Notes under the pieces: model-generated
The model's database searches: none
What the model was told of the DNA's origin: nothing
What the model saw: only the letters and a program-made list of their open reading frames with translations
In this document: positions 6,673-29,300 of the stretch, in pieces
Position numbering within the stretch: the stretch's first letter is position 1
Layout of the letters: each line of letters starts with the position of its first letter
From: a bacterium
GTDB taxonomy: Bacteria > UBP7 > UBA6624 > JBBIMK01
Direction of reading: 5' to 3'
Assembly (NCBI GenBank): GCA_037444445.1
Contig: JBBIMK010000021.1
Coordinates: 4,494 to 36,493, forward strand
Length of the DNA stretch: 32,000 nt
Made by a program: the position numbers and the translations under genes

Positions 6673-6674
6673 TG

Positions 6675-9392: not shown

Positions 9393-9408
9393 TTTGCCCA
9401 TTTCCTCC

Positions 9409-10797: not shown

Positions 10798-11879
10798 CCC
10801 TTCCACTCCTCTTCCACAGCCAGGCGTCCAAGAACCCCTGCCTCCAGACAGTTCATTCCGAGAGCAGTCCCCCCATAACTGACGAAGGGAAGTGGCAAGC
10901 CCGCTACCGGCAACAAAGTGGTGGATACACCCAGGTTCATCAACACCTGAAATCCTATTATTCCTGCAATCCCCGCTGTAAGCAGGGCGGGAAAGGGGTG
11001 CTTCGCCCATTTCTCCATCACCTGCACACTGCTCCCGAGGAGCAAGATATATAGTCCCATCACCAGGATCCCCCCCAGGATTCCCATTTCTTCATTCACT
11101 ATCGCAAAGGCATAGTCATTATGGGGTTCCGGAATGTAATACTTCTGGATACTTTCCCCCAGGCCCTTGCCCAAAAGCCCACCGGAAACATAGGCGTATC
11201 GCGCCTGTTGTATCGCATATTGTTCATCGGAGAAGAGATTTATCCAGTGGCCTCCTCGCAGGCTCAATGCGGTGATACTGAAAATACCGGTGATGGCGAT
11301 GGCTAATACGCCTTGTGTGATAAGCGTTTTGAAGGTCAATGTTCCCGAAATAAGCACCATCAGCCCTAAAAGCAGGAGAAGCAGAGGAATGGCATCGGTA
11401 TCGGGCTGAAGGGCGATAGCCACAGCCGCAAGCATGAAAGTGGCGAGTAATAAAGTTTGCCCCCTGGAAGAGTTCATTTTCCCCATTTTCATTGCTTCCA
11501 GAACCCGGGCGGTGAACAGGATAAATCCGAATTTGAAAATTTCCAGTGGTTGCAGGGTGAAGAAGCCCAGGTCAATCCAGCGGGTCGCTCCGCGGGAGGT
11601 GTGGCTCACGCCTGGAATGAGAAGCAAGAATAACAGTGCCAAACCCATAAAAAGCCACAAAAGAGCGCTCCGACGCCAGATAGAAGGCTTCACCCTCAGC
11701 CCGATGAAAAATGCCAGTATCCCCAGCGGGAAGAGGAGGAATTGTTTCACGGCAAGATTCCCATATTTTTGTGTGTGAAGGGTGGCATCCAGCACCACAA
11801 GAAATCCCACACACAATAGCAAAGCCACAGCGATGCCTATCCGAAAGAAAACGGGATTACTTCTCACTTTCTTCAGCAT
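10794..11879 (-). CDS. ftsW: SEDS-family peptidoglycan glycosyltransferase FtsW
   Basis: Polytopic membrane protein with PSEFxK-like LQPLEIFKFGFIL, PEPHNDYAFAI (FtsW/RodA motif), and GLPLPFVSYGGTAL near the C-terminus. It occupies the dcw position after murD. Confidence 0.9.
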   Translation of the reverse strand: MLKKVRSNPVFFRIGIAVALLLCVGFLVVLDATLHTQKYGNLAVKQFLLFPLGILAFFIGLRVKPSIWRRSALLWLFMGLALLFLLLIPGVSHTSRGATRWIDLGFFTLQPLEIFKFGFILFTARVLEAMKMGKMNSSRGQTLLLATFMLAAVAIALQPDTDAIPLLLLLLGLMVLISGTLTFKTLITQGVLAIAITGIFSITALSLRGGHWINLFSDEQYAIQQARYAYVSGGLLGKGLGESIQKYYIPEPHNDYAFAIVNEEMGILGGILVMGLYILLLGSSVQVMEKWAKHPFPALLTAGIAGIIGFQVLMNLGVSTTLLPVAGLPLPFVSYGGTALGMNCLEAGVLGRLAVEEEWKG

Positions 11880-13281: not shown

Positions 13282-14303
13282 ATCGCCCACTGAATAGCCT
13301 CCGGAATGGCAGAAGATTCCACCGCACCTACCCCCAGAAGTGTAAACAGGAAGTGAAAAATCCAGAATGCAAGAACCACCCGTGGCTCTTCCATTCCACT
13401 CATTTCCAGATGATGATGAAGCGGGCTCATCCTGAATATCCTTTTCCCAAACAGGTGAAAGGAAATCACCTGAAAAATCACGGAGAGGACTTCCACCGCA
13501 TACACGGCTCCGAAAAGGAAGAGGAAAAGTTCGGTTCGGGTGAGGATGGCGACGGAAGCCAGCACCGCTCCCAGCAGGGATGACCCCACCTCCCCCATAA
13601 AGATTTTTGCCGGATAGGCATTCCATACTAAAAAGCCGAGGGAGACCCCGGATAGAACCCACAGGGGAAGCATAATCTCTGGCAGATAACTCCAGAACAG
13701 GCTTCCGTATGCGAAAAAGGTGAAGAGGATGCAACCGGTGAGGAGCCCATCCAGCCCGTCGGTGAAGTTCACCCCATTTACCGTGCCCATATAGGCAAGA
13801 ATCGCCAGCAGGATACACCCTTTTCCAATGTCCGGTATCTGGTCAGAAAAAGGGATGAAAATCTGGCTTCTGCCGCTGGCATAGGCCGTCCACCCCAGCA
13901 GGGCTCCGAGGAAAATCTGAAGGAGGATACGATAACGGGCTCGGAGCCCAGCGGTTCCTCCCCGCATTTTCAGAACATCATCCAGAAGCCCCGAGAGACT
14001 CGCTACTCCGCACACCACCCAGAAAACAACCTCCGTCCGGGTTAACCCCCCCCTGCCAGAGAGCCGATGAAATAATGGCAAGAGGAAAACCATCAGGAAG
14101 AGAACCCCTCCCATGGTGGGGATTCCCTGCTTCTGTAAGTGAGTAGTGGGTCCATCCGTTCTCACCCTCTGCCGTATTCCCCAGCGGGGGAAATACCGAA
14201 TCATCAATGGGGTTGCAAAGAGGGACAGAAGGAAAGTGAAAATCAATAAATATCCGGGTGTTCCCAGCCAATCCAGTTTCTGGATGAGAGGGAACTCATT
14301 CAT
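13278..14303 (-). CDS. mraY: phospho-N-acetylmuramoyl-pentapeptide transferase MraY
   Basis: KQGIPTMGG, DDVLK, NGVNFTDGLDGL, and PAKIFMGEVGS...MSPLHHHLE. The start is at MNEFPL (14303), 2 nt after the murF stop. Confidence 0.95.
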   Translation of the reverse strand: MNEFPLIQKLDWLGTPGYLLIFTFLLSLFATPLMIRYFPRWGIRQRVRTDGPTTHLQKQGIPTMGGVLFLMVFLLPLFHRLSGRGGLTRTEVVFWVVCGVASLSGLLDDVLKMRGGTAGLRARYRILLQIFLGALLGWTAYASGRSQIFIPFSDQIPDIGKGCILLAILAYMGTVNGVNFTDGLDGLLTGCILFTFFAYGSLFWSYLPEIMLPLWVLSGVSLGFLVWNAYPAKIFMGEVGSSLLGAVLASVAILTRTELFLFLFGAVYAVEVLSVIFQVISFHLFGKRIFRMSPLHHHLEMSGMEEPRVVLAFWIFHFLFTLLGVGAVESSAIPEAIQWAI

Positions 14304-14305
14304 GA

Positions 14306-15691
14306 TTACTCGCCTCTCACCCCGGACGCTTTCAGGATTTCTTCCACCATTCTTTCCATCCCCGTAGCGCGGGAGCCTTTCACCAGTATGACACTGTCCT
14401 GCCAGTTTTCCTTCTTCACATCTTCCAGGAGAGAAGGGAAATCCGCATACCATTGGCTTTCCACACCGCCTTTCTTCGCCTCTTCCACAGCCTCCTTCAT
14501 AGCATCTCCACAGGCAAGGAAGGACTGGAAGCCGAAATCCCCCAGTTGGTTTCCGATGTTCCGATGATATTTGCTGGCGTAATCGCCCAGTTCCAGCATA
14601 TCTGCGAGGATGGCGATTTTCTTTTTTCCTGCTCCGATTTGAGCCACAAAGCGGAAGGCTTCCTCCATAGAAGCAGGATTGGCATTATAGGTGTCATCCA
14701 CGAGGGTGCAGTTTTTCTTCAATACAAGAAGGTTCATACGGTGGGGGAGTGGTGGGCAGGAGAGGATGCCTTGTAAGATGTCGCCCTGAGGGATGCCCAG
14801 GCTCAGGCCCACCGCCACCGCCGATGCCAGAGGATAGCCCTGAAATTCGCCCGGGAGGGGTGCTCTCACCTCTTCCCGCCACTCCGGCGTCCTCACCCAG
14901 AACCGGCATCGTCCGTCTTCCCCGAACTCTTTCAGTTCAAAACTGATTTCTCCTCGCTTCCCGTAGGTCCGTATATCTCCGCGGCATTTATGTTTGAGCA
15001 CATGGAAATATGGGTCATCAGCGTTCAGAATGGAAAGATTTCGTCCCGTCAGATTCCACAGAAGTTCCCCTTTTGCATCCACAATAGCATCCATAGAACC
15101 CAGCAACCCGATATGCGTAGGGGCAATGGTAGTAATCACCCCGATGGTGGGTTGTGCCCTCTCGCACAGCCACAGGATGTCACCCGGCTTTCTCATTCCG
15201 AACTCCAGCACCACCACTTCAGCGTTCCCATTGATTCGGCTCAAGGTAAGAGGAACGCCAATTTCATTGTTATAACTCAGGGGGGTTTTCAGGGTTCTGA
15301 ATCTCCGCTCCAGAACAGAAGCGATGTATTCTTTTGCCGTGCTTTTCCCCACGGACCCGGTGACCGCCAGCACTTCTCCCTGGAATGCTTGACGGTGAAA
15401 CCGCCCTACTTCTGCCAGGGCTTCCAGACTATCCCTCACCTGAACTGCGAAAGCACCGGGGGGTAAAGCGCGAGGACCGCTGGGGTAGCGTTCCGCAACC
15501 ACTCCACGAGCCCCCATCTTCAGGGCTTCCAGGACATAATCGTTTCCGTTGTATCGTTCCCCTCTCAGGGCAAAGAAAACCTCTCCGGGTTTTAAACTCC
15601 GGGTGTCTGTGGCTATATCCTCCAGGGGAGATTCCGGGTCGCCTCCCAGAAGTGTAGCCGAACAAATTTGGAGCAAGTCCTTAACTTTCAT
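14306..15691 (-). CDS. murF: UDP-N-acetylmuramoyl-tripeptide--D-alanyl-D-alanine ligase MurF
   Basis: MKVKDLLQ...IATDTRSLKPGEVFFALRGERYNGNDYV, VTGSVGKSTAKE, and DDTYNANPASM. The start is at 15691, overlapping the end of murE by 11 nt. Confidence 0.92.
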   Translation of the reverse strand: MKVKDLLQICSATLLGGDPESPLEDIATDTRSLKPGEVFFALRGERYNGNDYVLEALKMGARGVVAERYPSGPRALPPGAFAVQVRDSLEALAEVGRFHRQAFQGEVLAVTGSVGKSTAKEYIASVLERRFRTLKTPLSYNNEIGVPLTLSRINGNAEVVVLEFGMRKPGDILWLCERAQPTIGVITTIAPTHIGLLGSMDAIVDAKGELLWNLTGRNLSILNADDPYFHVLKHKCRGDIRTYGKRGEISFELKEFGEDGRCRFWVRTPEWREEVRAPLPGEFQGYPLASAVAVGLSLGIPQGDILQGILSCPPLPHRMNLLVLKKNCTLVDDTYNANPASMEEAFRFVAQIGAGKKKIAILADMLELGDYASKYHRNIGNQLGDFGFQSFLACGDAMKEAVEEAKKGGVESQWYADFPSLLEDVKKENWQDSVILVKGSRATGMERMVEEILKASGVRGE

Positions 15692-17159
15692 ATTCCAGTT
15701 CCTGAAGCGCCTTGCGGGCTTCCACCCGGTCATCAAACGGGAGGATGGAATCCCCTACAATCTGGTAGGTTTCGTGCCCCTTCCCGGCGATGACCACGGC
15801 GTCGTTCTTTTTTGCCTCGGCGATGGCTTTTCGGATGGCTTCCCTCCGGTCTGGAAGAATGTGAATACAGTGGGCTTGCTCCACGGGGATACCCCCAAGA
15901 ATATCCCGGATGATGCCCAGGGGGTCTTCCTGCCGGGGGTTATCGCTGGTGATGAACACAATATCCGAGAATTCGCAGGCGATGCGCCCCATTCTGGGGC
16001 GTTTGGCTCTATCCCGATTGCCTCCACACCCGAACACCGTGAGCACCCGCCCGGAAGTAAGCCTTCTCACCGTTGTGAGAACCTTCAGCAGACTATCGGG
16101 TGTGTGGGCGTAGTCCACAAGGACCCTAAAAGGCTGACCCTGCTGAATTTCTTCCATCCGACCCGGAATTCCTTTCACTCGTGCAATGCCTGCCTGAATG
16201 GCACCCGGGGGAACCCCCAGCGATAACCCCAGCGCCACCGCTCCCACTACATTATACACATTGTGTTCTCCCCGCAGAGGCGTGAACACTTCCCATTCCT
16301 TTCCATTCAGCCCTCTCACTCTCAGCCGGCTCCCGTCCTCGCCCAGTTCCACACTTTCTGCCCGATATTCACCATTTTTTATCCCGTATCCCAGCAATCC
16401 CGGAACCTCCTGGAGAAGGCGGATGCCATAGCCATCGTCAGCGTTCACCAGGCCCTGAAATCCCTTCTTTCGCTCCACCTCCGTGAAGAGAAGTTTTTTG
16501 GCAGAGAAATAATCTTCCATGCTGGAATGGAAATCCAGATGGTCCTGGGAGAGATTGGTGAACAGGGCCCGGTCCAGCATAATTCCACTCAATTTCCCCA
16601 GCCTCAGCCCGTGAGATGAGGCTTCAAAACAGGCGCACTGAGCATCACGGGTTTGAAATTGGCGTAAGAGCCACACGAGGTCGTCTGCTTCCGGAGTGGT
16701 GTTCTCCAGGTTCCAGACTTCGCCATCCAGGCTCCCACCTAAAGTGCCCACGATGCCGGCTTTTTTCCCAGCAGCGTTGAGAATAGAGGCTACCAGATGG
16801 CTGGTGGTGGTTTTCCCTTTCGTTCCTGTAATGGCGAGGATGGACATTTGAGCGGAGGGGTTGTGATAGAATCGCTGGGCGACCTGCCCCAGGGCCCTGC
16901 GTACATCCCTGGCTTTGATGATACACGGGAAGGGAATCCCCACCGGGCGGTCCACCAGCACTGCCACTGCCCCTCTCTCGTAGGCTTCAGCGAGGAAATC
17001 CATGCCGTCCCGCTTCTCCCCCCGAATCGCCGCAAACAAATGCCCTGCCTCCACTTTCCGTGAGTGGTGCACAATCCCGCGAATGGGAACCTCCACATCC
17101 CCAAAAACTTCGCCATCTAACCTCTTCACTAACTCTTTAATCCGTTTCTCTCGTTCCAT
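15681..17159 (-). CDS. murE: UDP-N-acetylmuramoyl-L-alanyl-D-glutamate--2,6-diaminopimelate ligase MurE
   Basis: ITGTKGKTTTSHL, DYAHTPDSL, and GCGGNRDRAKRP. The ITSDNPRQEDP segment carries the DNPR motif that established work associates with meso-DAP-adding MurE enzymes. Confidence 0.95.
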   Translation of the reverse strand: MEREKRIKELVKRLDGEVFGDVEVPIRGIVHHSRKVEAGHLFAAIRGEKRDGMDFLAEAYERGAVAVLVDRPVGIPFPCIIKARDVRRALGQVAQRFYHNPSAQMSILAITGTKGKTTTSHLVASILNAAGKKAGIVGTLGGSLDGEVWNLENTTPEADDLVWLLRQFQTRDAQCACFEASSHGLRLGKLSGIMLDRALFTNLSQDHLDFHSSMEDYFSAKKLLFTEVERKKGFQGLVNADDGYGIRLLQEVPGLLGYGIKNGEYRAESVELGEDGSRLRVRGLNGKEWEVFTPLRGEHNVYNVVGAVALGLSLGVPPGAIQAGIARVKGIPGRMEEIQQGQPFRVLVDYAHTPDSLLKVLTTVRRLTSGRVLTVFGCGGNRDRAKRPRMGRIACEFSDIVFITSDNPRQEDPLGIIRDILGGIPVEQAHCIHILPDRREAIRKAIAEAKKNDAVVIAGKGHETYQIVGDSILPFDDRVEARKALQELEYES

Positions 17160-18861
17160 TTTCTATCCCAGCCTCTGTCTGCGGCGGAATCCCGTAATAC
17201 CAGAAGATGTCCTTCAGGATGTTTTTGACAGCCGGAGCGGCCAGTTGCCCGCCAGAAGCCCGGTAAGTTTTCGGGTCATCCAGGACCACGGCCACGAGAA
17301 ACCGGGGAGAATCTGCCGGATAAAAGGCAAAGAAGGAAACGACCACATGCTGTTCATCCCGATGATAATACCCGCCGCCGGGCTTGGTCTTCTGAGCCGT
17401 TCCCGTCTTCCCTGCCACTGGATAGCCTTCCATCTTCAGCGCAGTTCCAGTGCCCTCCAGAACCACTCCCTTGAGGGCATTGAGAATAAAGTCTACCGTC
17501 TCTTTTGAAAGAACACGATGGGCAGTCCTCTGGCACCTGAAGATGGGCTCTCCATCCCCCTTGCGAATCTCTTTCACCACACAGGGGTCCACCACCTCAC
17601 CCCCGTTGGCAAATGCACTATAGGCTCGCAGTAGTTGAATAGGAGTCACAGCGATTCCTTGCCCGAACCCGAGGGTGGCTTTCTCCGTGGGTCCGAACTG
17701 GGCTGGAAGAAGCCCCCGGGCTTCCAGCGACCGGGGCCTCAGCACTTCCTCTGCCATCACTGCCTGCCCGAATCCGAACTTCTGAAGCCATTCTTTCCAT
17801 TCCAGGTCAGAAATCAGGGAGCCCACCTCCGAAGCCCCCACATTGCAGGACTTGACAAGAATTTCCCGCAAGGTCACTTTGCCGTGGGCACGTCCATCAA
17901 ACTCCCCGATGGGAGAGCGCTGGGGCATCGGCCGTTGCCCGGTACACACCACCTCAAAAGATTCCTTCACCTTCCCGTCCTCCAGGGCAATAGAGAGGGC
18001 GATGGGCTTGAAGGTGGAGCCAGGCTCATAAACAAAATAGAGGGCTTTATGCCGCAGGTTTTCCGGGTTCTGGGAAGCATACTCATTCGGGTTAAATACA
18101 GGCGCACTCGCCAGAGCAAGTAGTTCCCCCGTTTGCGCATTCATCACCATCCCAACGGCTCCTACCGCTTGCTCCTTTTCCATAGCCTGGCTAATTTCCT
18201 CTTCCACGATGTATTGCAGTGCTTCATCTATGGTGAGCACCAGGTCATATCCATCCAGGGCTGGCAAAAAAGGAGCTGCTCCAGGAATTGGCCTGCCGAA
18301 GGCTACCCTCCGATACATCTGCTCCAGTGTGCTTTCCTTTAGATAATCCTCAAATGCCCATTCTAACCCACCCCCCTTTCCTCCTTCATAAGCGGAGCGA
18401 TAGCCAATCAGATTTCCCGCCAGGCTTTGCAGGGGATAATATCGGTTGTTGCGTTTTTCCATTCTTAACTGTAAGCCGATAGGCACGCCATTCACTCGTT
18501 TCCTCTTCAGGACTTCTGCCTTCTCAGGGGGCAGGAAGAAAAGGGCTTGAGACTCCTCCGGCTGGATTTTCCTGCCAAGGATTTCTTGCATGCCGATGAC
18601 CACTGCGGACCGGACCTCCGGGGTCATCTTCCTCCAGGGCGCCCGGATTTCATAAGTGTCCTGGTTGACAGCGAGAAGGTGATTCTGGCGGTCAAAAATC
18701 CGCCCCCTCCCCCCGCTCCACTCCCCCAGTTCCTTTACCTGCTTTTGATACTGGGCTTTCAATCGTTCATCTCCCCTCAATTTCATTACCTGCAGAAGGA
18801 AAATCACTGAAAAGACAAAAAAGGCACTCCTCCAGAGCCAGACCCCGGGGTGAACGGTCAT
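17137..18861 (-). CDS. ftsI: class B penicillin-binding protein / peptidoglycan D,D-transpeptidase FtsI
   Basis: N-terminal TM anchor and the three transpeptidase motifs: STFK (YEPGSTFKP), SCN (KSCNVGA) and KTGTA (AGKTGTAQK). It occupies the dcw position between ftsL and murE. Confidence 0.92.
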   Translation of the reverse strand: MTVHPGVWLWRSAFFVFSVIFLLQVMKLRGDERLKAQYQKQVKELGEWSGGRGRIFDRQNHLLAVNQDTYEIRAPWRKMTPEVRSAVVIGMQEILGRKIQPEESQALFFLPPEKAEVLKRKRVNGVPIGLQLRMEKRNNRYYPLQSLAGNLIGYRSAYEGGKGGGLEWAFEDYLKESTLEQMYRRVAFGRPIPGAAPFLPALDGYDLVLTIDEALQYIVEEEISQAMEKEQAVGAVGMVMNAQTGELLALASAPVFNPNEYASQNPENLRHKALYFVYEPGSTFKPIALSIALEDGKVKESFEVVCTGQRPMPQRSPIGEFDGRAHGKVTLREILVKSCNVGASEVGSLISDLEWKEWLQKFGFGQAVMAEEVLRPRSLEARGLLPAQFGPTEKATLGFGQGIAVTPIQLLRAYSAFANGGEVVDPCVVKEIRKGDGEPIFRCQRTAHRVLSKETVDFILNALKGVVLEGTGTALKMEGYPVAGKTGTAQKTKPGGGYYHRDEQHVVVSFFAFYPADSPRFLVAVVLDDPKTYRASGGQLAAPAVKNILKDIFWYYGIPPQTEAGIENGTRETD

Positions 18862-19232
18862 TCCTTTCCTTCCTCCCGGGCTGGCAAAATCTCTCGTTCC
18901 TCAGTTTTCGCCATCCCTCGCTCCCTCGCCTGCTGAAGCACCCGCCGGGAGGCTTCCAGCTCCGTCAGGTGAATTCTCAGGTTCTCAACTACCCGCCGTT
19001 GGGCGCTTAATTCCTCCACCAGTCGCTCCCTCTCCTCTAATTCACGAGCATCCAACACCGAGAGCACACCATATACAAGTGTGAAACTGACTATCACACC
19101 CATCCCCAGCAAAAAGAATTTCCACGAGGGCAGGTGTTCCCGCGCTTGAGAATCCGTGGAGCCGACTCTCTCCATTCGGTGATGCGCCAGAGCCTGCTCC
19201 GAATTTTGCGATTCACCAGCCGAATCCGTCAT
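18858..19232 (-). CDS. ftsL: cell division protein FtsL-like (bitopic, coiled coil)
   Basis: 124 aa with a single TM (FFLLGMGVIVSFTLVYGVLSVL) followed by the coiled-coil-like ELEERERLVEELSAQRRVVENLRIHLTELEA. It sits between rsmH and ftsI with ATGA overlaps on both sides. The call rests on position and architecture only. Confidence 0.65.
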   Translation of the reverse strand: MTDSAGESQNSEQALAHHRMERVGSTDSQAREHLPSWKFFLLGMGVIVSFTLVYGVLSVLDARELEERERLVEELSAQRRVVENLRIHLTELEASRRVLQQARERGMAKTEEREILPAREEGKE

Positions 19233-20131
19233 TCCAGTGTCCTCCGCTCAAAAGCCCTTAAACGGGCGCTTCTTCCTCGCCGATTTTCCTCCACTTCTTC
19301 CCCGGGTGGAAAAACGGGAAAGGGCTTCAAAATTTCCCCCTTCCCTTCCCTTTCCCACCTTCTGAAGGTTTGCTTCACAATCCGGTCCTCCAGGGAATGA
19401 TAAGCAATGACCAGCAGGCGCCCGCCGGGTCGCAGGCAAGAAATCCCTTCCTCCAGCCCCTCCCGCAGCGCATTCAGTTCATCGTTCACCGCTATACGCA
19501 GGGCTTGAAATACCCGCGTCGCTGGGTGAATCCTCCCGCGATAACGCACAGGCACCGCCCCTTTCACCAAATCCGCCAGGCTCACCGTGGTCAGCGGCAA
19601 CTCCTTCTTCTCCCGGACCCACACAATCCTTCGGGCAATTCGCCGAGACCACCGCTCCTCCCCATATTCTCGGAAAATCCTCTCTAACTCAAAAAGTGAG
19701 GAAGATTCCAGTATTTCCCGGGCTGTTCGCCTCATCCCGGTATCCATCCGCATATCCAGAGGACCGGGATGCAAAAAGGAAAATCCCCGTTCCGGCGTCT
19801 CTAACTGGAGGGAAGAAACTCCCAGATCCATCAGGATGCCGTCCACCTGCCTTACACCCGTATGGCTCAAAAGTTGCTGTAAACGCCTGAAATTCCCCTG
19901 AAGCAGAGTGAAGGCTTTCCCTGTTTCCTCCAGCGTCGTCTGTGCTTCGCACAAAGCAAAGGCATCCTGGTCAATCCCGATGAGACGCCCTTGCTGCAAC
20001 TCATTCAGAATGGCCCGGGCATGTCCACCCGTTCCTACGGTAGCGTCCACGAAAACGCCCCGAACCGGGTGAAGAAAATTCAGCACCTCCTTCACCATCA
20101 CCGGACGATGTCGTATCCTCAAATCCACCAT
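19229..20131 (-). CDS. rsmH: 16S rRNA (cytosine1402-N4)-methyltransferase RsmH (MraW)
   Basis: HRPVMVKEVLNFL...VDATVGTGGHARAIL, DLGVSSLQLE..ERGFSF, PLDMRMD, and IAYHSLEDRIVK. Confidence 0.95.
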   Translation of the reverse strand: MVDLRIRHRPVMVKEVLNFLHPVRGVFVDATVGTGGHARAILNELQQGRLIGIDQDAFALCEAQTTLEETGKAFTLLQGNFRRLQQLLSHTGVRQVDGILMDLGVSSLQLETPERGFSFLHPGPLDMRMDTGMRRTAREILESSSLFELERIFREYGEERWSRRIARRIVWVREKKELPLTTVSLADLVKGAVPVRYRGRIHPATRVFQALRIAVNDELNALREGLEEGISCLRPGGRLLVIAYHSLEDRIVKQTFRRWEREGKGEILKPFPVFPPGEEVEENRRGRSARLRAFERRTLE

Positions 20132-20604
20132 CGCAGAACTCTTTGCTCCTCTTCAGAAAACTCTTCCAGCCTGGAAACCAGCTGCTTCCTCCAGGCTTCA
20201 AAGTGATGTCTCGCCCACAGGAAAAGCATGGAGTTACCCGTGATAGCCACTTCATCTTTCATTTCCGCATACTCAATAAAATCTCTGGGCAGAAGAATCC
20301 TGCCCAATTCGTCAAAGGTTCGGTAGCGAGACCAGTGTTCCGTGAACAGTTGAATATCGTAGGCTCTGGTCTGGTATTTTTCCGGAAGATTCTCCAGATA
20401 TTTCAGATATTCATCACGCTGATGTGGCGACATCACTCTCAGGTGGGGGATGGCAACGAAGGGGGGAGCCCAGACAATCCAGACTTCATCGCTGGCAAGG
20501 CGTTTTCTGTATTCTTGAGGGATGAGGATTCGCCCTGCCGGGTCCAGCCTCTGGTAGAAATTGTTAGTAGAATTTTTCCTGCCCACTGCCGTTCTGATTT
20601 TCAT
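20119..20604 (-). CDS. mraZ: transcriptional regulator MraZ
   Basis: Two copies of the MraZ D-x-x-G-R-I-L-I/L-P motif (LDPAGRILIPQEYRKRL and DELGRILLPRDFIEYA). It is the first gene of the dcw cluster. Confidence 0.85.
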   Translation of the reverse strand: MKIRTAVGRKNSTNNFYQRLDPAGRILIPQEYRKRLASDEVWIVWAPPFVAIPHLRVMSPHQRDEYLKYLENLPEKYQTRAYDIQLFTEHWSRYRTFDELGRILLPRDFIEYAEMKDEVAITGNSMLFLWARHHFEAWRKQLVSRLEEFSEEEQRVLRWWI

Positions 20605-20936: not shown

Positions 20937-21094
20937 CTTCTAAGATTATGGGGTTTTTCCACATTTTACAATGCAACAAGGTGGGAAGAATGGCGGGACG
21001 AAATCATGGGCTTGCTTGCTGTGTGATGTAAATCACTTATTTCCGGATATAATGAATGTGGTAGTTGCTAATGGCGGAGGGTAAATCCTTATGC

Positions 21095-21188
<94 letters not shown>

Positions 21189-21268
21189 GTTATCACCTTT
21201 TGGATTCTGGCAGGAATTTTGCAAACCCAAGAGCAGTGGAACCAAAAATTTAAGAAGGAGGTAAACTT

Positions 21269-21479
21269 ATGCCATTTACAACCGTAAAAGTCATAAAAGG
21301 AGTGTTCTCCAAAGAGCAAAAAGGCCCAACTCATCCACAAGGACACCGAAGCGATGATTGAGGTTGAGGGCGAGGGCATGCGCGATTTGACCTGGGGCGA
21401 CATTGAAGTAGTGGAACCTGGAGATTGGGCAATCGGAGGCAAGCCCATCTATCCCAAGCCGAAGCCAGCGGGTTCGTAG
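21269..21479 (+). pseudogene. 4-oxalocrotonate tautomerase-family gene interrupted by a +1 frameshift in an A5 run
   Basis: AAGGAGG (21255-21261) is followed 7 nt later by ATG 21269. Frame 1 reads MPFTTVKVIKGVFSKEQK and stops at 21359. The next frame, from about 21321, reads KAQLIHKDTEAMIEVEGEGMRDLTWGDIEVVEPGDWAIGGKPIYPKPKPAGS*. Joined, the two give a typical 69-aa Pro-1 tautomerase. The junction lies in caaaaagg (21317-21324). Confidence 0.75.
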
Positions 21480-21546: not shown

Positions 21547-21572
21547 AAAAAAGCAGCCAGCGGAGAACGCTG
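21547..21572 (-). terminator. weak terminator candidate downstream of the repeat-protein gene
   Basis: On the minus strand: CAGCG-TTCTC-CGCTG (5-bp stem), then GCTGC, then TTTTTT. The T-tract is 5 nt away from the stem, so support is weak. Confidence 0.3.
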
Positions 21573-21647
21573 AGCGAGAAGTCAAGATTTTGTATCATCG
21601 GTAGCGTTGAGGTCAAAAGATTTAAGGTGTAAAAGGGTGGGGAGGGA

Positions 21648-23768
21648 TTATTTTTTGAGGAGTTGGAGTTCTTCCTCGGTGAGGGTGCCGGAGCCGTCTT
21701 GCTTTCGCAGTTTTGCGATTTCTGATGCGAGGGCAGAGCGCTGCTGGATAGCCAGAGCAATCAGGCTCTCCAGGACTTCAGCGGAGGCGCCGAGTTTTAC
21801 CACCTCAAAGGCGGATTCCAGGTCGCCAGCGCGGATAAATTCCACCGCCATCTGATTGATTTCCTCAAGGGTCAGGGTTCCTGTTCCGTCGGGCTTTCTC
21901 AGATAAGCAACTTGAAGAGCTTTCGGCAGGTTCCGTTCGCGGATGGCGAAGCGAACCAGGCGGTCAATTTCCTCAGGGAAGAGGGTTCCGGTTCCATCCG
22001 GCTTCCGGTGGCGAGCCACTTCTATGGCATCTCCCAGCATCCCCCTGCGAACGCAGTAACCGACGAGCATATCGTAAGCAAAGGGGGTAGCACCCAGGCG
22101 TGCGGTTTCCAGACCCGTGCGAAAATCTCCATCTTCAACGAACCGTTGCACCAGCCGGTCCAGAACATCTGGCGAGGCTCCCAGTCGCGCCGCCTGAAGT
22201 GCCTCCCTTGTCCTTCCTTCCCGGTTCAAGTGAACCACCATCTGGTCAACTTCCGCTGGAGTGAGTATTCCAGTTCCATCGGGCTTTCGCAATTTCGCCG
22301 CCTGAACGGCTTCCTCTACCATCTGCCGTTCGGTGCAGTAAGAAACCAATAAATCAATCGTTTCCGGCACTGCACCCACACGAAGAGACTGGAACATATC
22401 GGGAAATCCTCGGGCTTCCAGGTATTTCACGACGAGGCGGCCGAAGGTGGCTGGATGTATAATCTGCCGCACCCGCTCCTGAGTCCAGGGTCCCTTCCCT
22501 CCTGCGTCTATAAAAATCCGAAACAGGAATTCCATTTCTTCCAGTGTTACATATCCGGTTCCTTCGGGCGTGCGAAGACGAGCCGCCTGCTGAATCACTT
22601 CCACTCTCGGGAACTGGCTCTGCATTTCTCTCTGGATGAGTCGAGTCAGGAGCTCGGAATGGCTGGTAGGGTCTCGGGCGGATTCCCCTGCTTCCGGAAG
22701 ATACCTGAGCAGAAAAGAGGTTCGCAAAGTGTGGAGTTCCTCCGGCGTCAGGGAGCCTTTACCGCCGGGCTCTCGCTGATGGGCGGCACGAAAGGCATGG
22801 TCCACATATCCCCGCTGTAGATAAAGGGACATCAAGCGTTCCCGTAAGGGGGGAGAAACACCCTGCTGGGCAATCTGAAGCACCACATCCAGCCAGAAGA
22901 CGGGCACACCCTGTTCCATCACGGATTCCCGTTCTACCCAGCCTTTCTTTTCATCCAGGAAAATGAGAGCGTGGCTCACCAGCCTTTCTCTCACATCTTC
23001 CGAGACACCGAATTTCGCCACTTCAATGGCGGGCCAGAGGTCCACCAGAGAAGCATCCCGAGCCAGGAGGTTTTTCACCAGGTCATTCCGCTCTTCCAGG
23101 GTCAGGTTGCCTGTTCCATCCGGTGTACGGAGTTTCGCTGTTTCCATGGCGACGGCGGCATTTCCCCTGGCGATTAAGACTTCAATCAGGCGATTCAAGC
23201 AAGAAAGGGAAACGCCACGGCGAGCCACCCTCGCCGCAATGTCTTCTCTTCCATTGGCAATGAAAGCATCTACCAGCCGCTCATAATCCTCCATTGAAGT
23301 GGTGCTGATGCGAGTGGCTTTCAGGGCTTCTTCCATATTTCCTGATTGAATATTCACCTGGATGAGCGTACTGACTTCTTCGGGAGTTAATTTTCTGTCT
23401 GGGCGTAAGCGGGCGGCTTTTCGGGCGATGTCCACCCATCCGGCCTTCGCATATGCGTGAATTAACTTCTCCCGCAGGCTTTCCGGCACCGTCTTGTCCA
23501 GGAATTCCACGGTATAAGAAACCTGGTCATGCTGGAGACACGCCTCCAGAAACAGATGAAGAGCCTCGCGTGAGGGCTTCAGCCTGCAGGCTTCAGCGGC
23601 AAGGTGAAACTGCATTGCCTCCACGAGGCTCCGAACCAGCAGGTCCACCCCCTTCTGGGAGGCTCCATGCGCCGCCCGATGAACCGCTTCCTCCCACTTC
23701 CTCTGAAAGAGGGCGGAACGAACAAGCCCATCTACCCGACGCTCATGTAACCTCTGCAACAAGCCCAC
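21648..23768 (-). CDS. orphan alpha-helical repeat protein, pentatricopeptide (PPR)-like, with eight A(K/R)LR(K/T)PDGTGxLTxEE loops
   Basis: Long ORF (706 codons, GTG start; the first in-frame ATG is codon 52) with no competing frame. It is built from 31-36-aa repeat units along its whole length. No signal peptide or TM segment. See findings. Confidence 0.8.
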   Translation of the reverse strand: MGLLQRLHERRVDGLVRSALFQRKWEEAVHRAAHGASQKGVDLLVRSLVEAMQFHLAAEACRLKPSREALHLFLEACLQHDQVSYTVEFLDKTVPESLREKLIHAYAKAGWVDIARKAARLRPDRKLTPEEVSTLIQVNIQSGNMEEALKATRISTTSMEDYERLVDAFIANGREDIAARVARRGVSLSCLNRLIEVLIARGNAAVAMETAKLRTPDGTGNLTLEERNDLVKNLLARDASLVDLWPAIEVAKFGVSEDVRERLVSHALIFLDEKKGWVERESVMEQGVPVFWLDVVLQIAQQGVSPPLRERLMSLYLQRGYVDHAFRAAHQREPGGKGSLTPEELHTLRTSFLLRYLPEAGESARDPTSHSELLTRLIQREMQSQFPRVEVIQQAARLRTPEGTGYVTLEEMEFLFRIFIDAGGKGPWTQERVRQIIHPATFGRLVVKYLEARGFPDMFQSLRVGAVPETIDLLVSYCTERQMVEEAVQAAKLRKPDGTGILTPAEVDQMVVHLNREGRTREALQAARLGASPDVLDRLVQRFVEDGDFRTGLETARLGATPFAYDMLVGYCVRRGMLGDAIEVARHRKPDGTGTLFPEEIDRLVRFAIRERNLPKALQVAYLRKPDGTGTLTLEEINQMAVEFIRAGDLESAFEVVKLGASAEVLESLIALAIQQRSALASEIAKLRKQDGSGTLTEEELQLLKK

Positions 23769-23969
23769 GAATTACTTCACCTGCCTCCTCTTTACCTCCT
23801 TCAATCATCTTTATTATCTCATAGAAGTTCCTGCGATTTCAACTGTCGGGGAAGATAGGGTATTCAAAATTCTCTACGAATTTGCAGTGCGGGAAGAGAC
23901 AAATCTATGGCTTCCCCGTGCCTCCCGCAGGTTTTGTATGGATGGCTATCTGCCCCCACCAACGGAGGG

Positions 23970-24010: not shown

Positions 24011-25306
24011 ATGGATAGCACCGGAGGATTTTTATCTTCAGAAATAAACAGAATGCGGGAGCGGTTTCCCGCCCTGCAATCTCGTGACTTTCGGATGTTC
24101 TGGACAGGGCAAATGGTTTCTCTCACCGGCACCTGGATGCAGTCCGTGGCGCAAGCGTGGCTGGTGCTGAAACTGACGAATTCGCCGCTGACGCTGGGCA
24201 TCATTGGCGCCCTCCAGTCGGCTCCCGTGTTCCTCTTTTCCATCTTCGCAGGGGTTCTGATAGACCGCATCCCGAAACGAACTTTGCTCCTGTTCACTCA
24301 ATCCGTCCTCACTCTTCAGGCGCTGATTTTAGGCATCCTCACTCTCACGAAAACTGTGGCGTTCTGGCATATTGCCGTGCTGGCAACTGTCCTCGGGCTC
24401 GCCAATACTATGGATATGCCCGGTCGGCAGGCTTTCATCAAAGAAATGGTGAAGCGGGAAGATGCGGTGATGAATGCAGTGGCTCTGAACTCCACCATCT
24501 TCAACCTTGCGAGGGTGCTGGGACCGGGAATTGCCGGCCTCCTGATGACCCGGTTTGACATCGGCATCATTTTCATACTGAATGCCTTCACTTTTCTCCC
24601 GGTTCTCTGGAGCATTCATCGGATGGAAGCAGGTAGGGAGGCGCCCAAAACCAACACTACCATTCTCAAAAGTGCAACAGAAGGCTTACACTATGTGAGA
24701 AGCCAGCCGGTGCTTTTCAGGCTTCTTCTCCTCCTCGCCTTCCTCAGTATCTTCTCCATCAACTTCAATGTGTTGATACCTGTGTTCGCCAAAATCTATT
24801 TGCATGAAACGGCGAAGGGCTACGGCCTATTGATGTCTTCTATGGGGCTGGGAGCGCTGGCAGGCGCTGGATTCCTGATTCTTCTCAGCCGACGGGGACC
24901 CCAATCTTCTCTGATTTACGGGGGAGCCCTCGGGCTTTGTATTTTTCAAGCACTCCTGCCCCTCACTCATTCTATTCCCTCCGCTTCTCCTCTTTTATTC
25001 CTTGCGGGCGCCAGTATGATTATCTACATTTCCACCACGAATACCCTACTTCAGGTAACCAGTCTGGATGAATATCGTGGGCGAGTGATGAGCCTTTATA
25101 TACTGGTCTTCGGCGGTGCTACTCCCATTGGTAACCCGCTCATTGGCACCCTCACGGAGCATCTGGGCGTTCCATTCGCTCTGCTTTTCGGCGGGCTTCT
25201 GGGCGCGGTCATCACACTCATCTTCGCCGGGTGGAGGCTCTACGCTCGTCGCCCCACCAATCTCGGAATTCCCTTCCCGGGAATGAAATGGAGAACCTTC
25301 AAATGA
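24011..25306 (+). CDS. MFS transporter (MFS_3 / EntS-like family)
   Basis: RDFRMFWTGQMVSLTGTWMQSVAQAWLVL is a typical N-terminus of this MFS subfamily. About 12 hydrophobic segments. The start is ambiguous: ATG 24011 or MRERF at 24053. Confidence 0.88.
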   Translation: MDSTGGFLSSEINRMRERFPALQSRDFRMFWTGQMVSLTGTWMQSVAQAWLVLKLTNSPLTLGIIGALQSAPVFLFSIFAGVLIDRIPKRTLLLFTQSVLTLQALILGILTLTKTVAFWHIAVLATVLGLANTMDMPGRQAFIKEMVKREDAVMNAVALNSTIFNLARVLGPGIAGLLMTRFDIGIIFILNAFTFLPVLWSIHRMEAGREAPKTNTTILKSATEGLHYVRSQPVLFRLLLLLAFLSIFSINFNVLIPVFAKIYLHETAKGYGLLMSSMGLGALAGAGFLILLSRRGPQSSLIYGGALGLCIFQALLPLTHSIPSASPLLFLAGASMIIYISTTNTLLQVTSLDEYRGRVMSLYILVFGGATPIGNPLIGTLTEHLGVPFALLFGGLLGAVITLIFAGWRLYARRPTNLGIPFPGMKWRTFK

Positions 25307-27848: not shown

Positions 27849-29300
27849 ATGAGCAACCTGCAAGGGATGACTCTGCTGGACCTTTTCCGTTTGCAGTGTG
27901 ATGGGAAGGCGTCACCGGAGGAGGTTCTTCAGGAGTTATGGGCGGTTACGGAGAGGCTGGACCCGGTTCTCAGGGCTTATATTTCCCGATGGCAGGAAAT
28001 TCCAGCAGTTACACAATCCGAACCTGTTTTACCGATAGCGCTGAAGGACAACCTGTGCACCCGGGATTATCCCACCACCTGCGGTTCAAAAATGCTAATG
28101 GATTTTCGCCCGCAGTATGATGCTACCGCTGTAAAGAAATTGAGGAATGCCGGCGCTGTTTTCCCGGGTAAAACGAATATGGATGAGTTTGGTATGGGGT
28201 CTTCTACGGAGAATTCGGGCTTTTTTGTGACGAAGAATCCGTATGATATAACCCGGGTGCCAGGAGGGTCCAGCGGGGGAAGTGCAGTGGCGGTGGCTAC
28301 CGGCATGGTTCCAGCGGCTTTGGGAACTGACACGGGTGGAAGCGTGCGCCAGCCAGCTTCCTTCTGTGCCCTTGTGGGCATCCGCCCCACCTACGGCCTG
28401 GTTTCACGATACGGACTTGTGGCCTTCGCTTCCTCTTTAGATACTATCGGTGTCCTCGCCAGAACCGTGGAAGATACAGCCCTTATCCTCTCTCTCATCT
28501 CCGGAAAAGACCCGAAAGACAGCACCTCCAGACAGGGATTTACCGCGAGGATTCCCGAGGATTTAGCGATTTCCACTCCTTTCACACTCGGGCTCGTGAA
28601 GGAACTATGTGAGGGGGAAGAAGTGGAGGAGGAGGTGAAGCAATCTCTGGATTCTGCTGTTAGAACTTTTGAAAATCTCGGGTATAAAATCCAGGAGGTT
28701 TCAGTTCCACATATCCGATATGCTCTGGATTCCTACTATGTGATAGCACCGGCGGAGGCGAGTTCCAATCTTGCACGCTATGACGGTGTAAAATACGGCT
28801 ATAGAGAAATGGGAGGGGGAAGGGGAAAGAAGAAAGAAGGAGAACAGGTTACACTGGAAGAAATGTATGCTTTCACCAGGTCTAAAGGCTTCGGGGATGA
28901 AGTGAAGCGGAGAATCTTGCTGGGGGTGTTCGTCCTGTGTTCCGGGTATTATGAAGCCTACTATCAAAAGGCTCTTACTTTAAGAAAACGCATTGCCGAT
29001 GAACTTTTAGAGGCACTCCAATCGTGCGATGCTCTACTTACTCCTACCTCACCGACCCCGCCTTTCCGGCTGGGAGAGCGGCTGGACTCCCCATTGAAGA
29101 TGTACTATTCTGATATGGACACTTTGCCCGCGGCTCTGGCGGGAATTCCCGCTATTTCCATCCCTTCCGGGTTTACTCGCTCCGGCTTGCCGATAGGCAT
29201 TCAATTTATGGGTAAGCCATTTGATGAACTCACCCTGTTCCGGATTTCTTACGCCTTCCAGGAAGCCACAGGGCTGAAGAACCTGATGGTGAAAGGTTGA
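27849..29300 (+). CDS. gatA: Asp-tRNA(Asn)/Glu-tRNA(Gln) amidotransferase subunit A
   Basis: Near-colinear by eye with B. subtilis GatA: PIALKDNLCT, MDEFGMGSSTENS, amidase signature VPGGSSGGSAVAVA, GTDTGGSVRQPASFC, and SRYGLVAFASSLDTIG. Alternative start at Met7 (27867). gatB and gatC are not adjacent. Confidence 0.92.
   Translation: MSNLQGMTLLDLFRLQCDGKASPEEVLQELWAVTERLDPVLRAYISRWQEIPAVTQSEPVLPIALKDNLCTRDYPTTCGSKMLMDFRPQYDATAVKKLRNAGAVFPGKTNMDEFGMGSSTENSGFFVTKNPYDITRVPGGSSGGSAVAVATGMVPAALGTDTGGSVRQPASFCALVGIRPTYGLVSRYGLVAFASSLDTIGVLARTVEDTALILSLISGKDPKDSTSRQGFTARIPEDLAISTPFTLGLVKELCEGEEVEEEVKQSLDSAVRTFENLGYKIQEVSVPHIRYALDSYYVIAPAEASSNLARYDGVKYGYREMGGGRGKKKEGEQVTLEEMYAFTRSKGFGDEVKRRILLGVFVLCSGYYEAYYQKALTLRKRIADELLEALQSCDALLTPTSPTPPFRLGERLDSPLKMYYSDMDTLPAALAGIPAISIPSGFTRSGLPIGIQFMGKPFDELTLFRISYAFQEATGLKNLMVKG

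Follow-up and report, generated by a model that had tools for sequence, protein, structure and literature searches.

PPR proteins are defined by degenerate tandem motifs of about 35 residues (P motifs of 35, L motifs of 35-36 and S motifs of 31-32 residues), and the canonical PPR code pairs Asn, Ser or Thr at position 5 with Asp, Asn, Ser or Thr at position 35, in combinations which vary between repeats. TPR proteins, which are likewise composed of stacked helical hairpins, typically serve as protein-binding scaffolds in bacteria. The EF-hand is taken here as a 12-residue loop in which positions 1, 3, 5, 9 and 12 supply oxygen ligands. PPR proteins are described as essentially absent from bacteria, a few plant parasites excepted, Ralstonia among them (PMC3858423), and it is in a bacterium that the protein described below is encoded.

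In this work we have analyzed a 706-aa protein encoded within a stretch of 32,000 nucleotides (referred to as the window), for which an earlier note had proposed a PPR-type RNA-binding function. We favor, at a probability of roughly 55%, a genuine soluble cytoplasmic protein which forms one continuous alpha-solenoid of a rare repeat family and acts as a binding scaffold, the partner of which is more likely a protein than RNA.

The gene and its neighborhood

The complete ORF (706 aa and a stop codon) occupies positions 21648..23768 on the minus strand with a GTG start at 23768, and the ORF listing bears out the long minus-strand frame described before. The N-terminus (MGLL...) lines up with the start of orthologue P0012 (MGFL...). 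A Shine-Dalgarno-like sequence, GAGGAGGCAGGTGA (23777..23790, minus strand), was read from the sequence, its AGGTGA ending 8 nt 5' of the GTG. Consensus scanning, by consensus match only, placed a promoter-like TTGAAA-18-GATAAT at 23813..23842 (minus strand; matching the consensus at 10 of 12 positions and carrying the TG of an extended -10) and a terminator-like hairpin followed by a T-run at 21557..21573 (minus strand), 75 nt past the stop codon. The ORF is under purifying selection, with dN/dS of 0.13 against orthologue L001 and 0.12 against L002 (706 and 394 codons in the two comparisons). The great rarity of the family, the use of GTG as start codon and the lack of expression evidence in the databases searched could be taken as signs of a spurious or decaying frame without function. 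That reading is effectively refuted by the selection signal over these codons and by colinear full-length orthologues with 33-44% identity in several assemblies, and the very confident predicted fold and the plausible expression signals on both flanks, consensus matches as they are, also stand against it. The ORF is a genuine conserved bacterial gene. Orthologue P0002 was considered as a natural 394-aa truncated form and dismissed, the upstream DNA of its contig encoding the N-terminal part, broken by runs of N. The absence of a signal peptide or transmembrane segment, which had also been noted, was upheld: the 19-residue segment of highest hydrophobicity is an amphipathic repeat containing Lys and Glu.

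In the lineage of the window the gene is flanked by tRNA-Ser and mraZ on one side and by an MFS gene on the other; the latter, an MFS_3 gene at 24011-25306, is the one from which the gene had been described as divergent, and this is correct. The description of the gene as standing alone agrees with twelve context look-ups, in which no neighbor was common to all orthologue lineages, most of the distant relatives lying on contigs of 1-5 kb. An apparently shared methyltransferase neighbor was discarded, being not orthologous (26% identity over 78 aa). A GatA-like amidase is encoded in the neighborhood of the gene; its closest counterparts among species representatives share just 48-54% identity with it and are scattered across many phyla, so that it gave no taxonomic placement. 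In one orthologue lineage a PP-loop/NFACT-R protein is found upstream of the repeat gene.

Repeat units, loops and predicted fold

The protein consists of about 20 helix-hairpin units. The core unit has 28-29 residues with the pattern G-A-S-P-E-x-L-D-x-L-V...G....A.E.A-K/R-L, and grows to 36 residues by insertion of a 7-residue loop, RKPDGTG, at seven junctions and a further degenerate one; in the unit alignment this is visible as a 7-column insert. The unit size of 31-36 residues given in the earlier note has to be revised, since 36 residues are reached only with the loop. The internal repetition was borne out by BLASTP of protein chunks against the protein itself, with matches to E 1e-18, beyond chance (for example residues 439-510 against 533-604). 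Each unit is composed of a helix A of about 13 residues and a helix B of 8-11 residues, with a turn containing Gly between them, and it is because of this short helix B that the unit measures 29 residues. Two kinds of joint connect the units, a tight G-A-S-P linker in those of 28-29 residues and the G-A-S-P linker together with R-K-P-D-G-T-G in those of 36; after the insert comes L-T-x-E-E, which caps the N-terminal end of the succeeding helix A and aligns with the A-S-P-E-x of the short units.

Four regions, all read on the minus strand, can be distinguished. Residues 1-34 (23667..23768) form irregular helices by DSSP of the full-length model and match a unit only in part, at residues 13-29. 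The N-terminal array of residues 35-253 (23010..23666) holds seven units of 28-40 residues, defined by the unit table and alignment and forming hairpins in the model. The central region, residues 254-464 (22377..23009), is supported by orthologue alignments and model pLDDT; it carries irregular units of 27-49 residues with inserts, its P289, W292, F386-P387 and W428 are kept in all orthologues, as is the invariant L244-W245 just upstream in the preceding array, and in the single-sequence model pLDDT falls below 50 at residues 274-291 and 425-435. The regular C-terminal array, residues 465-706 (21651..22376), is supported by the AlphaFold2 model and Foldseek and is made of seven units of 29, 36, 29, 29, 36, 36 and 28 residues and a terminal half unit, the protein ending in ...GTLTEEELQLLKK.

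The eight copies of the loop motif lie exactly where they had been placed, starting at residues 119, 211, 329, 396, 491, 585, 621 and 685. Six of them fit R-x-P/Q-D/E-G-T/S-G-x-L/V-T/F well, and those at 119 (RLRPDRKLTPEE) and 329 (QREPGGKGSLTPEE) are degenerate. Numbered from the N-terminus, and all on the minus strand, the loops are RPDR (residues 122-125, 23394..23405; degenerate), RTPDGTG (214-220, 23109..23129), REPGGKG (332-338, 22755..22775; degenerate), RTPEGTG (399-405, 22554..22574), RKPDGTG three times (494-500, 22269..22289; 588-594, 21987..22007; 624-630, 21879..21899) and RKQDGSG (688-694, 21687..21707). At the DNA level the loop region forms a repeat family, D1, of seven 55-nt copies, those around loops 2 to 5 being at 23089-23143, 22735-22789, 22534-22588 and 22249-22303; loops 6 to 8 are likewise supported by motif, AlphaFold2 model and DNA repeat family, and loop 5 is coil in the high-confidence model. 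The D1 copies share only 64-73% identity, so their codons differ and the repeats are not an assembly artefact, as the earlier note had argued in calling them old. The resemblance of DGTGTLT to the DKTGTLT motif of P-type ATPases and HAD proteins was set aside, as the motif is an inter-helix coil in an all-helical protein.

The full-length single-sequence model shows helix hairpins throughout. Residues 463-706, modelled by AlphaFold2 with an alignment of 31 sequences (pLDDT 96.7, pTM 0.87), contain 15 helices and no strands, with 9-11 coil residues for each PDG loop; the AlphaFold check proposed in the earlier note thus returned an all-helical solenoid. As modelled, the protein would consist of stacked antiparallel two-helix repeats in a superhelix, the arrangement which defines the TPR-like helical-hairpin superfamily. 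In a Foldseek search of solved structures with residues 463-706 the top 20 matches were almost all PPR proteins, with E-values from 3e-4, query TM-scores (TMq) of 0.31-0.53 and rmsd of 7-17 A, and TPRs followed close behind; the matches span PPR, TPR, Sel1 and clathrin-type solenoids. The BFVD library of viral structures returned generic solenoids only. A profile of the wider family matched consensus TPR (1.6e-6), LRPPRC (3.4e-5) and clathrin repeats (1e-3). A tandem HTH DNA-binding array was rejected, the confident model being an antiparallel solenoid with PPR and TPR structural neighbors. The AAKLGASxxxIxxLV junction does agree with A5-L8-G9-I15, the classic HTH pattern, and weak HTH_28 and HTH_38 matches occur in one relative. 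The resemblance between LTPEEV and LTPEQV had suggested a TALE-like reader of DNA, which was rejected on the reversed helix lengths (long A, short B); no TALE appears in the Foldseek top 50 for the model of residues 463-706.

An exhaustive phmmer search gave 41 matches in 1.84 billion cluster representatives, so that the protein is not strictly the orphan it had been called. Four or five of these are clusters of full-length orthologues, colinear from start to stop, and the rest are shorter repeat-only proteins from metagenomes (P0014-P0038, P0040-P0050, P0052 and P0053), in which ...AAKLGASxExIDxLV... units alternate with ...AKLAGRxLTxEEIDxLV... units. Homologue searches with a word index, profile queries included, recovered hardly anything beyond two near-identical orthologues. 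None of the Pfam, NCBIfam or PADLOC families was convincingly passed, the PADLOC search giving no match for the 706-aa protein, and a Pfam scan of the longer family members revealed no informative fused domain; neither a genome scan with the protein nor two metagenome scans with family alignments gave matches. The family is very rare and uncharacterized, and lies within the TPR/PPR-like helical-hairpin repeat class.

Candidate functions

The proposal of a bacterial PPR-type modular binder, reading RNA or single-stranded DNA with one nucleotide per hairpin along the inner groove of the superhelix, draws on the Foldseek result, where the best matches are RNA-bound designer PPRs, PPR10, mitoribosomal rPPRs and, from the plastid RNA polymerase complex, PPR-containing subunits such as pTAC3. 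A profile of the protein's own units also finds PPR proteins best, with designer PPRs at E 2e-23 to 4e-9 and the matched segment running from helix A through the turn into the first part of helix B; these E-values, however, result from summing about nine identical 8-bit matches, and natural PPRs score 0.09 or worse. TIGR00756 of NCBIfam scores 22.7 over the whole protein against a cutoff of 20, with no individually significant stretch, and the Pfam check which the earlier note had called for failed narrowly for PF01535 (24.2 against 25) and more widely for PF13041 (16.4 against 30); PF12854 likewise stayed below its cutoff (11.2 against 23.8), not one repeat being individually significant in any PPR model. 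Weak PPR matches occur in six of 31 family members, and for the wider-family profile consensus TPR is a slightly better match than PPR. The defining motif length is not attained, the core unit being of 28-29 residues and reaching 36 only by loop insertion, and helix B has 8-11 residues against about 13. The code readout was also negative: the position-2 equivalent is Asp or Glu in 13 of 20 units and the position-5 equivalent in 12 of 20, the position-35 equivalent is Ser or Thr in 14 of 20 and never Asp or Asn, and a canonical 5/35 pair occurs in three. No unit position was found which varies between units and yet is conserved between orthologues. The protein is slightly acidic (pI 5.7-6.4 across orthologues), some members of the wider family have signal-peptide-like N-termini, and TM-scores to PPRs are just 0.3-0.5. 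Nucleic-acid enzymes adjoining some orthologues would fit a PPR-type binder, which we nevertheless consider unlikely. Of the earlier proposal the helical-hairpin alpha-solenoid and the PPR proteins as nearest solved folds stand; membership of the PPR family, or a function as a PPR-type RNA reader, is not supported by the sequence. TPR membership fares no better in Pfam, where the best model, TPR_14, scores 13.2 against 23.5, far below the cutoff; the unit has 29 residues against 34, and the signature W4-L7-G8-Y11-A20-F24-A27-P32 is absent from the protein. That the protein and its roughly 40 relatives represent an unrecognized prokaryotic sister lineage of PPR and TPR, binding RNA or single-stranded DNA by a logic other than 5/35, we regard as distinctly unlikely; on that reading the endonuclease V, SNF2 and PP-loop/NFACT-R neighbors could point to a role in the repair or modification of nucleic acids. 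Improbable too, in our estimate, is an accessory protein adaptor in nucleic-acid repair or remodelling, recruited by or recruiting endonuclease V or a SNF2 helicase and not itself a reader of bases. At the P0012 and P0013 loci the next gene downstream, in the same orientation, encodes endonuclease V (after 266 and 69 nt), with repeat proteins sharing only 41% identity and endonucleases sharing 54%, and at the P0013 locus the repeat gene begins with a codon that overlaps the stop codon of a SNF2 helicase; but the association is missing in the lineage of the window and at the P0011 and P0051 loci, endonuclease V was not found among the window genes scanned, and with just five contexts the two that carry it may simply share ancestry.

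The alternative that the junctions are EF-hand-like, with the eight K-P-D-G-T-G-x-L-T-x-E-E segments binding Ca2+ and so altering the pitch of the solenoid, is highly improbable. It arises from Pfam scores of 25.1 for EF-hand_6 (cutoff 25), 23.6 for EF-hand_7 (cutoff 30) and 20.9 for EF-hand_1 (cutoff 25.4), and from orthologue P0002, 89% identical, which is above all three sequence-level cutoffs (37.8 against 30, 31.6 against 25 and 25.6 against 25.4). Loop positions 6, 8, 9 and 12 are occupied by Gly, Leu, Thr and Glu respectively, two of the loops are separated by 36 residues, which is the spacing of the EF-hand pair in calmodulin, and calmodulin itself is weakly matched (E 0.5). These Pfam scores nevertheless add up partial matches confined to profile positions 11-27, the back half of the loop and the exiting helix, and no stretch is significant alone. 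Neither the protein nor any of five orthologues contains a PS00018/DxDxDG pattern; at position 1 there is Lys, Thr or Glu and never Asp, at position 5 Thr, Ser or Lys, and most loops of P0012 and P0013 have lost the position-3 Asp. Among the orthologues only R...G.L...E is invariant. The wider-family linker is GRxLTxEE without PDG, and the signal is limited to the lineage of the window (three of 31 members). The confident model is a translational solenoid without inter-loop beta-bridges, not a set of four-helix lobes, and no EF-hand protein is among the Foldseek top 50.

As for the scaffold which we prefer, about 20 short helical hairpins would stack side by side into one continuous alpha-solenoid without a catalytic domain, and the fold class alone suggests a rigid superhelical platform, along the surface of which a macromolecular partner would bind. 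RNA would be a less likely partner than a protein or a basic peptide because the face equivalent to the base-reading face of PPRs appears acidic, the concave face and its charge being deduced from sequence periodicity. The PDG loops would then be spacers of length and geometry on one edge of the solenoid, and not metal sites. Two observations run counter to a scaffold with a protein partner, namely that the nearest structural neighbors are RNA-binding PPR proteins and that nucleic-acid enzymes occur in several orthologue neighborhoods (endonuclease V in two lineages, SNF2, PP-loop/NFACT-R).

Comparison with known repeat families

The main practical value of this analysis is one of caution, as summed partial HMM matches lift close orthologues over the Pfam EF-hand thresholds. 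With these passes and the near-pass for PPR, automated annotation would call such genes "EF-hand domain protein" or "PPR protein", labels which both fail once the defining residues are checked. A compact 29-aa hairpin repeat family without a Pfam or NCBIfam model has been defined, and its very confident predicted fold could be of interest for the classification of repeat proteins or for solenoid scaffold design. Were its members to bind nucleic acid, the PPR proteins would have a prokaryotic counterpart in this family; present evidence leans against such binding.

Among the closest known proteins are those of what we term the KLGAS/GRxLTxEE family, defined here as arrays of hairpins of about 29 residues joined by -LGAS- or longer -R/G-x-LTxEE- linkers and ending in a half unit, LTxEE...K. 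The 706-aa protein belongs to this family: it shares the hairpin unit, the two linker types and the C-terminal half unit (...LTxEEIxxLxxxLxK), with 25-40% identity over 100-200 residues (E 1e-17 to 5e-4). The other members differ in being of 144-600 residues and not colinear with it, in having (A)GRxLT without P-D-G-x-G as the long linker and, in some cases, signal-peptide-like N-termini. With the EF-hand (calmodulin 1EXR; PF13405, PF13499, PF00036) the protein has in common a helix-loop-helix in which G-x-L-T-x-E-E corresponds to loop positions 6-12, but its loops are without ligand residues at positions 1 and 5. TPR proteins (CTPR 8BU0/1NA0, kinesin light chain, APC/C subunits) are similar in being hairpin solenoids with small residues at helix-packing positions, the wider-family profile finds its best sequence match in consensus TPR, and TPRs rank second in Foldseek; the TPR unit, however, has 34 residues and two helices of similar length. 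The mixed unit lengths of the protein recall the PLS-class PPRs, which combine long and short units. PPR proteins (dPPR10 6EEN, cPPR-Telo1 5ORM, maize PPR10 4M57, rPPRs 9GYT/9EVS) share with it the stacked tandem hairpins wound into a superhelix and the pattern xLxxLVxxxxxxGxxxxAL, which runs from helix A through the Gly turn into the first part of helix B, but their units have 35 residues against 28-29 here, with a helix B of 8-11, and the positions which in PPRs read nucleotides are acidic or Ser/Thr in the 706-aa protein, alike in every unit.

The repeat gene and its units

The minus-strand ORF at 21648..23768 starts with a GTG codon and encodes 706 aa, as the earlier note had described, and motifs of the KLRKPDGTGxLTxEE type were located at the eight residues it had named (119, 211, 329, 396, 491, 585, 621, and 685), six of the copies being good and two, at 119 (RLRPDRKLTPEE) and 329 (QREPGGKGSLTPEE), degenerate. 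When 90-aa chunks were compared with the whole protein by BLASTP, off-diagonal self-matches reached down to an E of 1e-18 (e.g., 439-510 against 533-604, and 468-540 against 598-670); internal repetition is far above chance. The DNA of the loop region forms a 55-nt family whose seven copies share just 64-73% identity, and the proposal that the repeats are old, with codons that differ between copies, is thereby upheld. The absence of a TM segment was also borne out, since even the most hydrophobic stretch of 19 aa is part of an amphipathic repeat and has Lys and Glu in it.

Units were defined by cutting the protein at predicted helices and then aligning the pieces. This gave about 20 units with a core of 28-29 aa, G-A-S-P-E-x-L-D-x-L-V-x-x-x-I-x-x-G-x-x-x-x-A-x-E-x-A-K/R-L, in which helix A is about 13 residues long and a turn with a Gly leads into a helix B of 8-11. 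Of the 31-36-aa units proposed earlier, those of 36 aa do occur, but in the alignment each is the 29-aa core lengthened by an insert of seven columns, R-K-P-D-G-T-G, here called the PDG loop. The L-T-x-E-E past the insert lines up with the A-S-P-E-x of short units, and it caps the helix A that follows. Units are regular across residues 465-706, the C-terminal third, where they measure 29, 36, 29, 29, 36, 36, and 28 aa and end in a half unit; in the centre (residues 254-464) they are longer and irregular, and a small number of Trp, Pro, and Phe residues there are kept in all orthologues.

The ORF is a real gene under constraint: its Nei-Gojobori dN/dS is 0.13 in comparison with the copy on contig L001 (97% identical) and 0.12 with that on contig L002 (89% identical). 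Its start site is backed by the alignment with orthologue P0012, whose MGFL... lies opposite MGLL.... Upstream, a predicted promoter-like site reads TTGAAA-18-GATAAT and has an extended -10 TG, and GAGGAGGCAGGTGA ends 8 nt before the GTG; downstream, a hairpin and then a T-run are predicted. The repeat gene looks monocistronic.

A rare repeat family and its gene neighbourhoods

Word-indexed homologue searches yielded little. A phmmer search run exhaustively over 1.84 billion cluster representatives returned 41 proteins at an E of 1e-3 or better, four of which were long (510-707 aa) colinear orthologues, and a later profile search added a fifth, P0051 (716 aa, 44% identical to the window protein). 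The others are P0002 (89% identical), P0011 (42%, N-terminus partial), P0012 (35%, 707 aa), and P0013 (33-35%, 674 aa). All align with the window protein unit for unit from start to stop. P0002, called at 394 aa from positions 665-1849 of L002, was considered as a truncated form and rejected; it is a split gene call, because DNA upstream of it on L002 encodes the N-terminal part, broken by runs of N.

The remaining relatives, of 144-600 aa, hold nothing but the same hairpins. They form a wider, unnamed, repeat-only family (P0014-P0053) in which ...AAKLGASxExIDxLV... and ...AKLAGRxLTxEEIDxLV... units alternate, and many shorter members close, as the window protein does, with a half unit ...LTxEEIxxLxxxLxK. 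No consistent Pfam family was found for the relatives, the weak matches being scattered over Glycos_trans_3N, DnaB_2, PPR, SpoVIF, ELYS, and TPR_30, and the Pfam scan detected no informative fused domains. Hydrophobic, signal-peptide-like N-termini are present in three relatives (P0019, P0022, and P0034); P0029 carries a C-terminal CFIATAVYG region and P0048 an N-terminal CxxC...CxxC motif. The exhaustive search also returned P0039, a long (1342 aa), eukaryote-looking protein with repeats of about 33 aa (LRLGVSQELRxxV...), a DUF5799 match of 49 bits, and a sub-threshold Ank_2 match near the C-terminus (25.1 bits, cutoff 27.3), which is probably a merely convergent match to the LGVS/LGAS junction.

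No neighbour was common to all orthologue lineages (the window and L001, P0012, P0013, P0011, and P0051 loci). In the window and L001 the repeat gene is flanked on one side by tRNA-Ser(GGA) and an mraZ-led cell-division cluster, and on the other by a divergent MFS_3 transporter gene and a methyltransferase gene; nadC lies downstream at the P0011 locus and a PP-loop/NFACT-R protein gene upstream at the P0051 locus. At the P0012 locus FAA hydrolase is upstream and endonuclease V downstream (9815-10513 on contig L003). At the P0013 locus (L005, 1-14178) a SNF2 helicase (951-969 aa) has a stop codon that overlaps the repeat gene's start codon, at position 10001, and endonuclease V (12094-12768) follows 69 nt downstream. 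Endonuclease V directly follows the repeat gene in two lineages that have diverged, whose repeat proteins are 41% and EndoV proteins 54% identical; the recurrence hints weakly at a link with nucleic-acid metabolism, but it comes from two loci which possibly share ancestry, and the adjacency is seen nowhere else.

Several other features of these loci were recorded. The best PADLOC matches of the L005 helicase are to BrxHI- and DrmD-type models; further upstream are an N_methyl-motif pilin-like protein, ORFs of 460 and 1325 aa without a family, and a PH-like protein, and a methyltransferase is also encoded downstream of the repeat gene. On L004, the other P0012 contig, a 298-aa protein with unqualified EF-hand_7 matches (123-1019) is encoded about 3 kb upstream of the orthologue, and the 290-aa gene at the matching position on L003 has no Pfam match on record. 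The cell-division/cell-wall cluster of the window (5800-20604, minus strand) comprises mraZ, rsmH, an ftsL-like ORF (124 aa, without a Pfam match), ftsI, murE, murF, mraY, murD, ftsW, murC, murB, ftsQ, ftsZ, a YggS-like gene, uppP, and ftsK; murG between ftsW and murC, ddl between murB and ftsQ, and ftsA between ftsQ and ftsZ are absent from it. The tRNA-Ser(GGA) gene (21095-21188, plus strand) stands alone between the repeat gene and mraZ, on the strand opposite to both, and the 119-aa ORF which overlaps it (21089-21448, minus strand) looks spurious. A GatA-like amidase (27849-29300, plus strand) shares just 48-54% identity with its best matches among 185,579 GTDB species representatives, and these matches are scattered across many phyla (Aquificota, Nitrospinota, Planctomycetota, Atribacterota, and others). 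The lineage of the window organism seems to lack a close representative genome.

Predicted fold and similarity to known repeats

The full-length AlphaFold2 model, made without an alignment, consists entirely of helix hairpins at moderate confidence (pLDDT 71.6, pTM 0.42). Modelling of residues 463-706 with a 31-sequence alignment of relatives gave a pLDDT of 96.7 and a pTM of 0.87, with fifteen helices, 9-11 coil residues at each PDG loop, and no strand or bridge. In a Foldseek search of the PDB with this model PPR proteins ranked first: designer PPRs (6EEN, 5ORM, 5I9G; E from 3e-4), plastid RNA polymerase complex subunits that contain PPRs (e.g., pTAC3) together with rPPRs of plant mitoribosomes (TMq 0.48-0.53), and PPR10 and LRPPRC. 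After these ranked TPR proteins, among them APC/C subunits and kinesin light chain, and no EF-hand protein was among the first fifty matches. TM-scores of 0.3-0.5 and rmsd values of 7-17 A show that the hairpin class is shared but the superhelix is different. The full-length model and viral library searches likewise returned generic solenoids.

Whole-protein scores of the window protein against curated models were 25.1 bits for Pfam EF-hand_6 (cutoff 25), 24.2 for PPR (25), 23.6 for EF-hand_7 (30), 20.9 for EF-hand_1 (25.4), and 13.2 for TPR_14 (23.5), and 22.7 for the NCBIfam PPR model TIGR00756 (20). These PPR, EF-hand, and TPR scores arise by adding up many weak partial matches, and no stretch was individually significant in these models except 13 residues in EF-hand_1 (690-702). 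When PDB sequences were searched with a profile built from 19 units of the protein itself, fifteen designer or consensus PPRs came out on top (E 2e-23 to 4e-9), each match being composed of about nine identical hits of some 8 bits at unit positions 6-25; natural PPRs did no better than an E of 0.09, and designed TPRs reached 0.05. With the wider-family profile a consensus TPR came first (1.6e-6), followed by LRPPRC (3.4e-5), rPPR6 (6e-5), and clathrin repeats (1e-3). Sequence places the repeat within the TPR/PPR-like class, slightly closer to PPR in the case of the window protein, and in no curated family.

The PPR and EF-hand readings

The earlier note had offered, as its weaker alternative, that the PDG loops are degenerate EF-hands. 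Numbered as an EF-loop (K1-P2-D3-G4-T5-G6-x7-L8-T9-x10-E11-E12), the motif fits at positions 6, 8, 9, and 12; position 1 holds Lys, Thr, or Glu and in no loop Asp, and position 5 holds Thr, Ser, or Lys. Neither PROSITE PS00018 nor DxDxDG matched any loop of the window protein or of five orthologues, and the Pfam matches span just profile positions 11-27, i.e., the back half of the loop and the exiting helix. Only R...G.L...E is invariant across orthologues, Asp is missing from most P0012 and P0013 loops, the wider-family linker is GRxLTxEE without PDG, and the EF-hand signal is limited to the window lineage (three of 31 members). The confident 463-706 model is a translational solenoid without inter-loop bridges. 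The EF-hand reading does not hold. P0002 clears the sequence-level cutoffs of EF-hand_7, EF-hand_6, and EF-hand_1 solely by summed partial matches, a likely route to misannotation.

The proposal favoured in the earlier note, a PPR-type RNA-binding protein, agrees with the structural ranking, but not with the residues of the code or with the Pfam PPR score, which stays below its cutoff. In the own-unit HMM register, unit position 5 stands for PPR position 2, unit position 8 for PPR position 5, and position 3 of the following unit for PPR position 35. Asp/Glu occupies the position-2 equivalent in 13 of 20 units and the position-5 equivalent in 12 (otherwise N three times, H twice, S, T, and G); at the position-35 equivalent Ser/Thr occurs in 14 of 20 and Asp/Asn in none. 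A canonical pair is formed in just three of the 20 units (N/S twice, N/T once). A fixed recognition code would give positions that are variable between units and conserved between orthologues. None was found, the most variable unit positions (12, 13, 19, and 22) being also the least conserved (orthologue identity 0.10-0.24). Given these residues and the slightly acidic pI of the window protein and its orthologues (5.7-6.4), the face equivalent to the base-reading face of PPRs would, in this alignment register, be acidic and uniform. PPR proteins are reported to be all but missing from bacteria, the exceptions being some plant parasites, for example Ralstonia (PMC3858423). To claim a bacterial PPR would take stronger evidence than that found here, and the PPR reading holds only as a statement on shape.

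The window protein, cytoplasmic and under constraint, is a non-enzymatic alpha-solenoid in which about 20 compact helical hairpins follow one another and the PDG loops are linker insertions. Its repeat family is very rare and has no curated model. The protein probably acts as a binding platform, for which a partner protein appears more likely than RNA. The main use of the finding is as a caution for annotation; the class itself, that of the TPR/PPR-like helical-hairpin repeats, is of a known kind.
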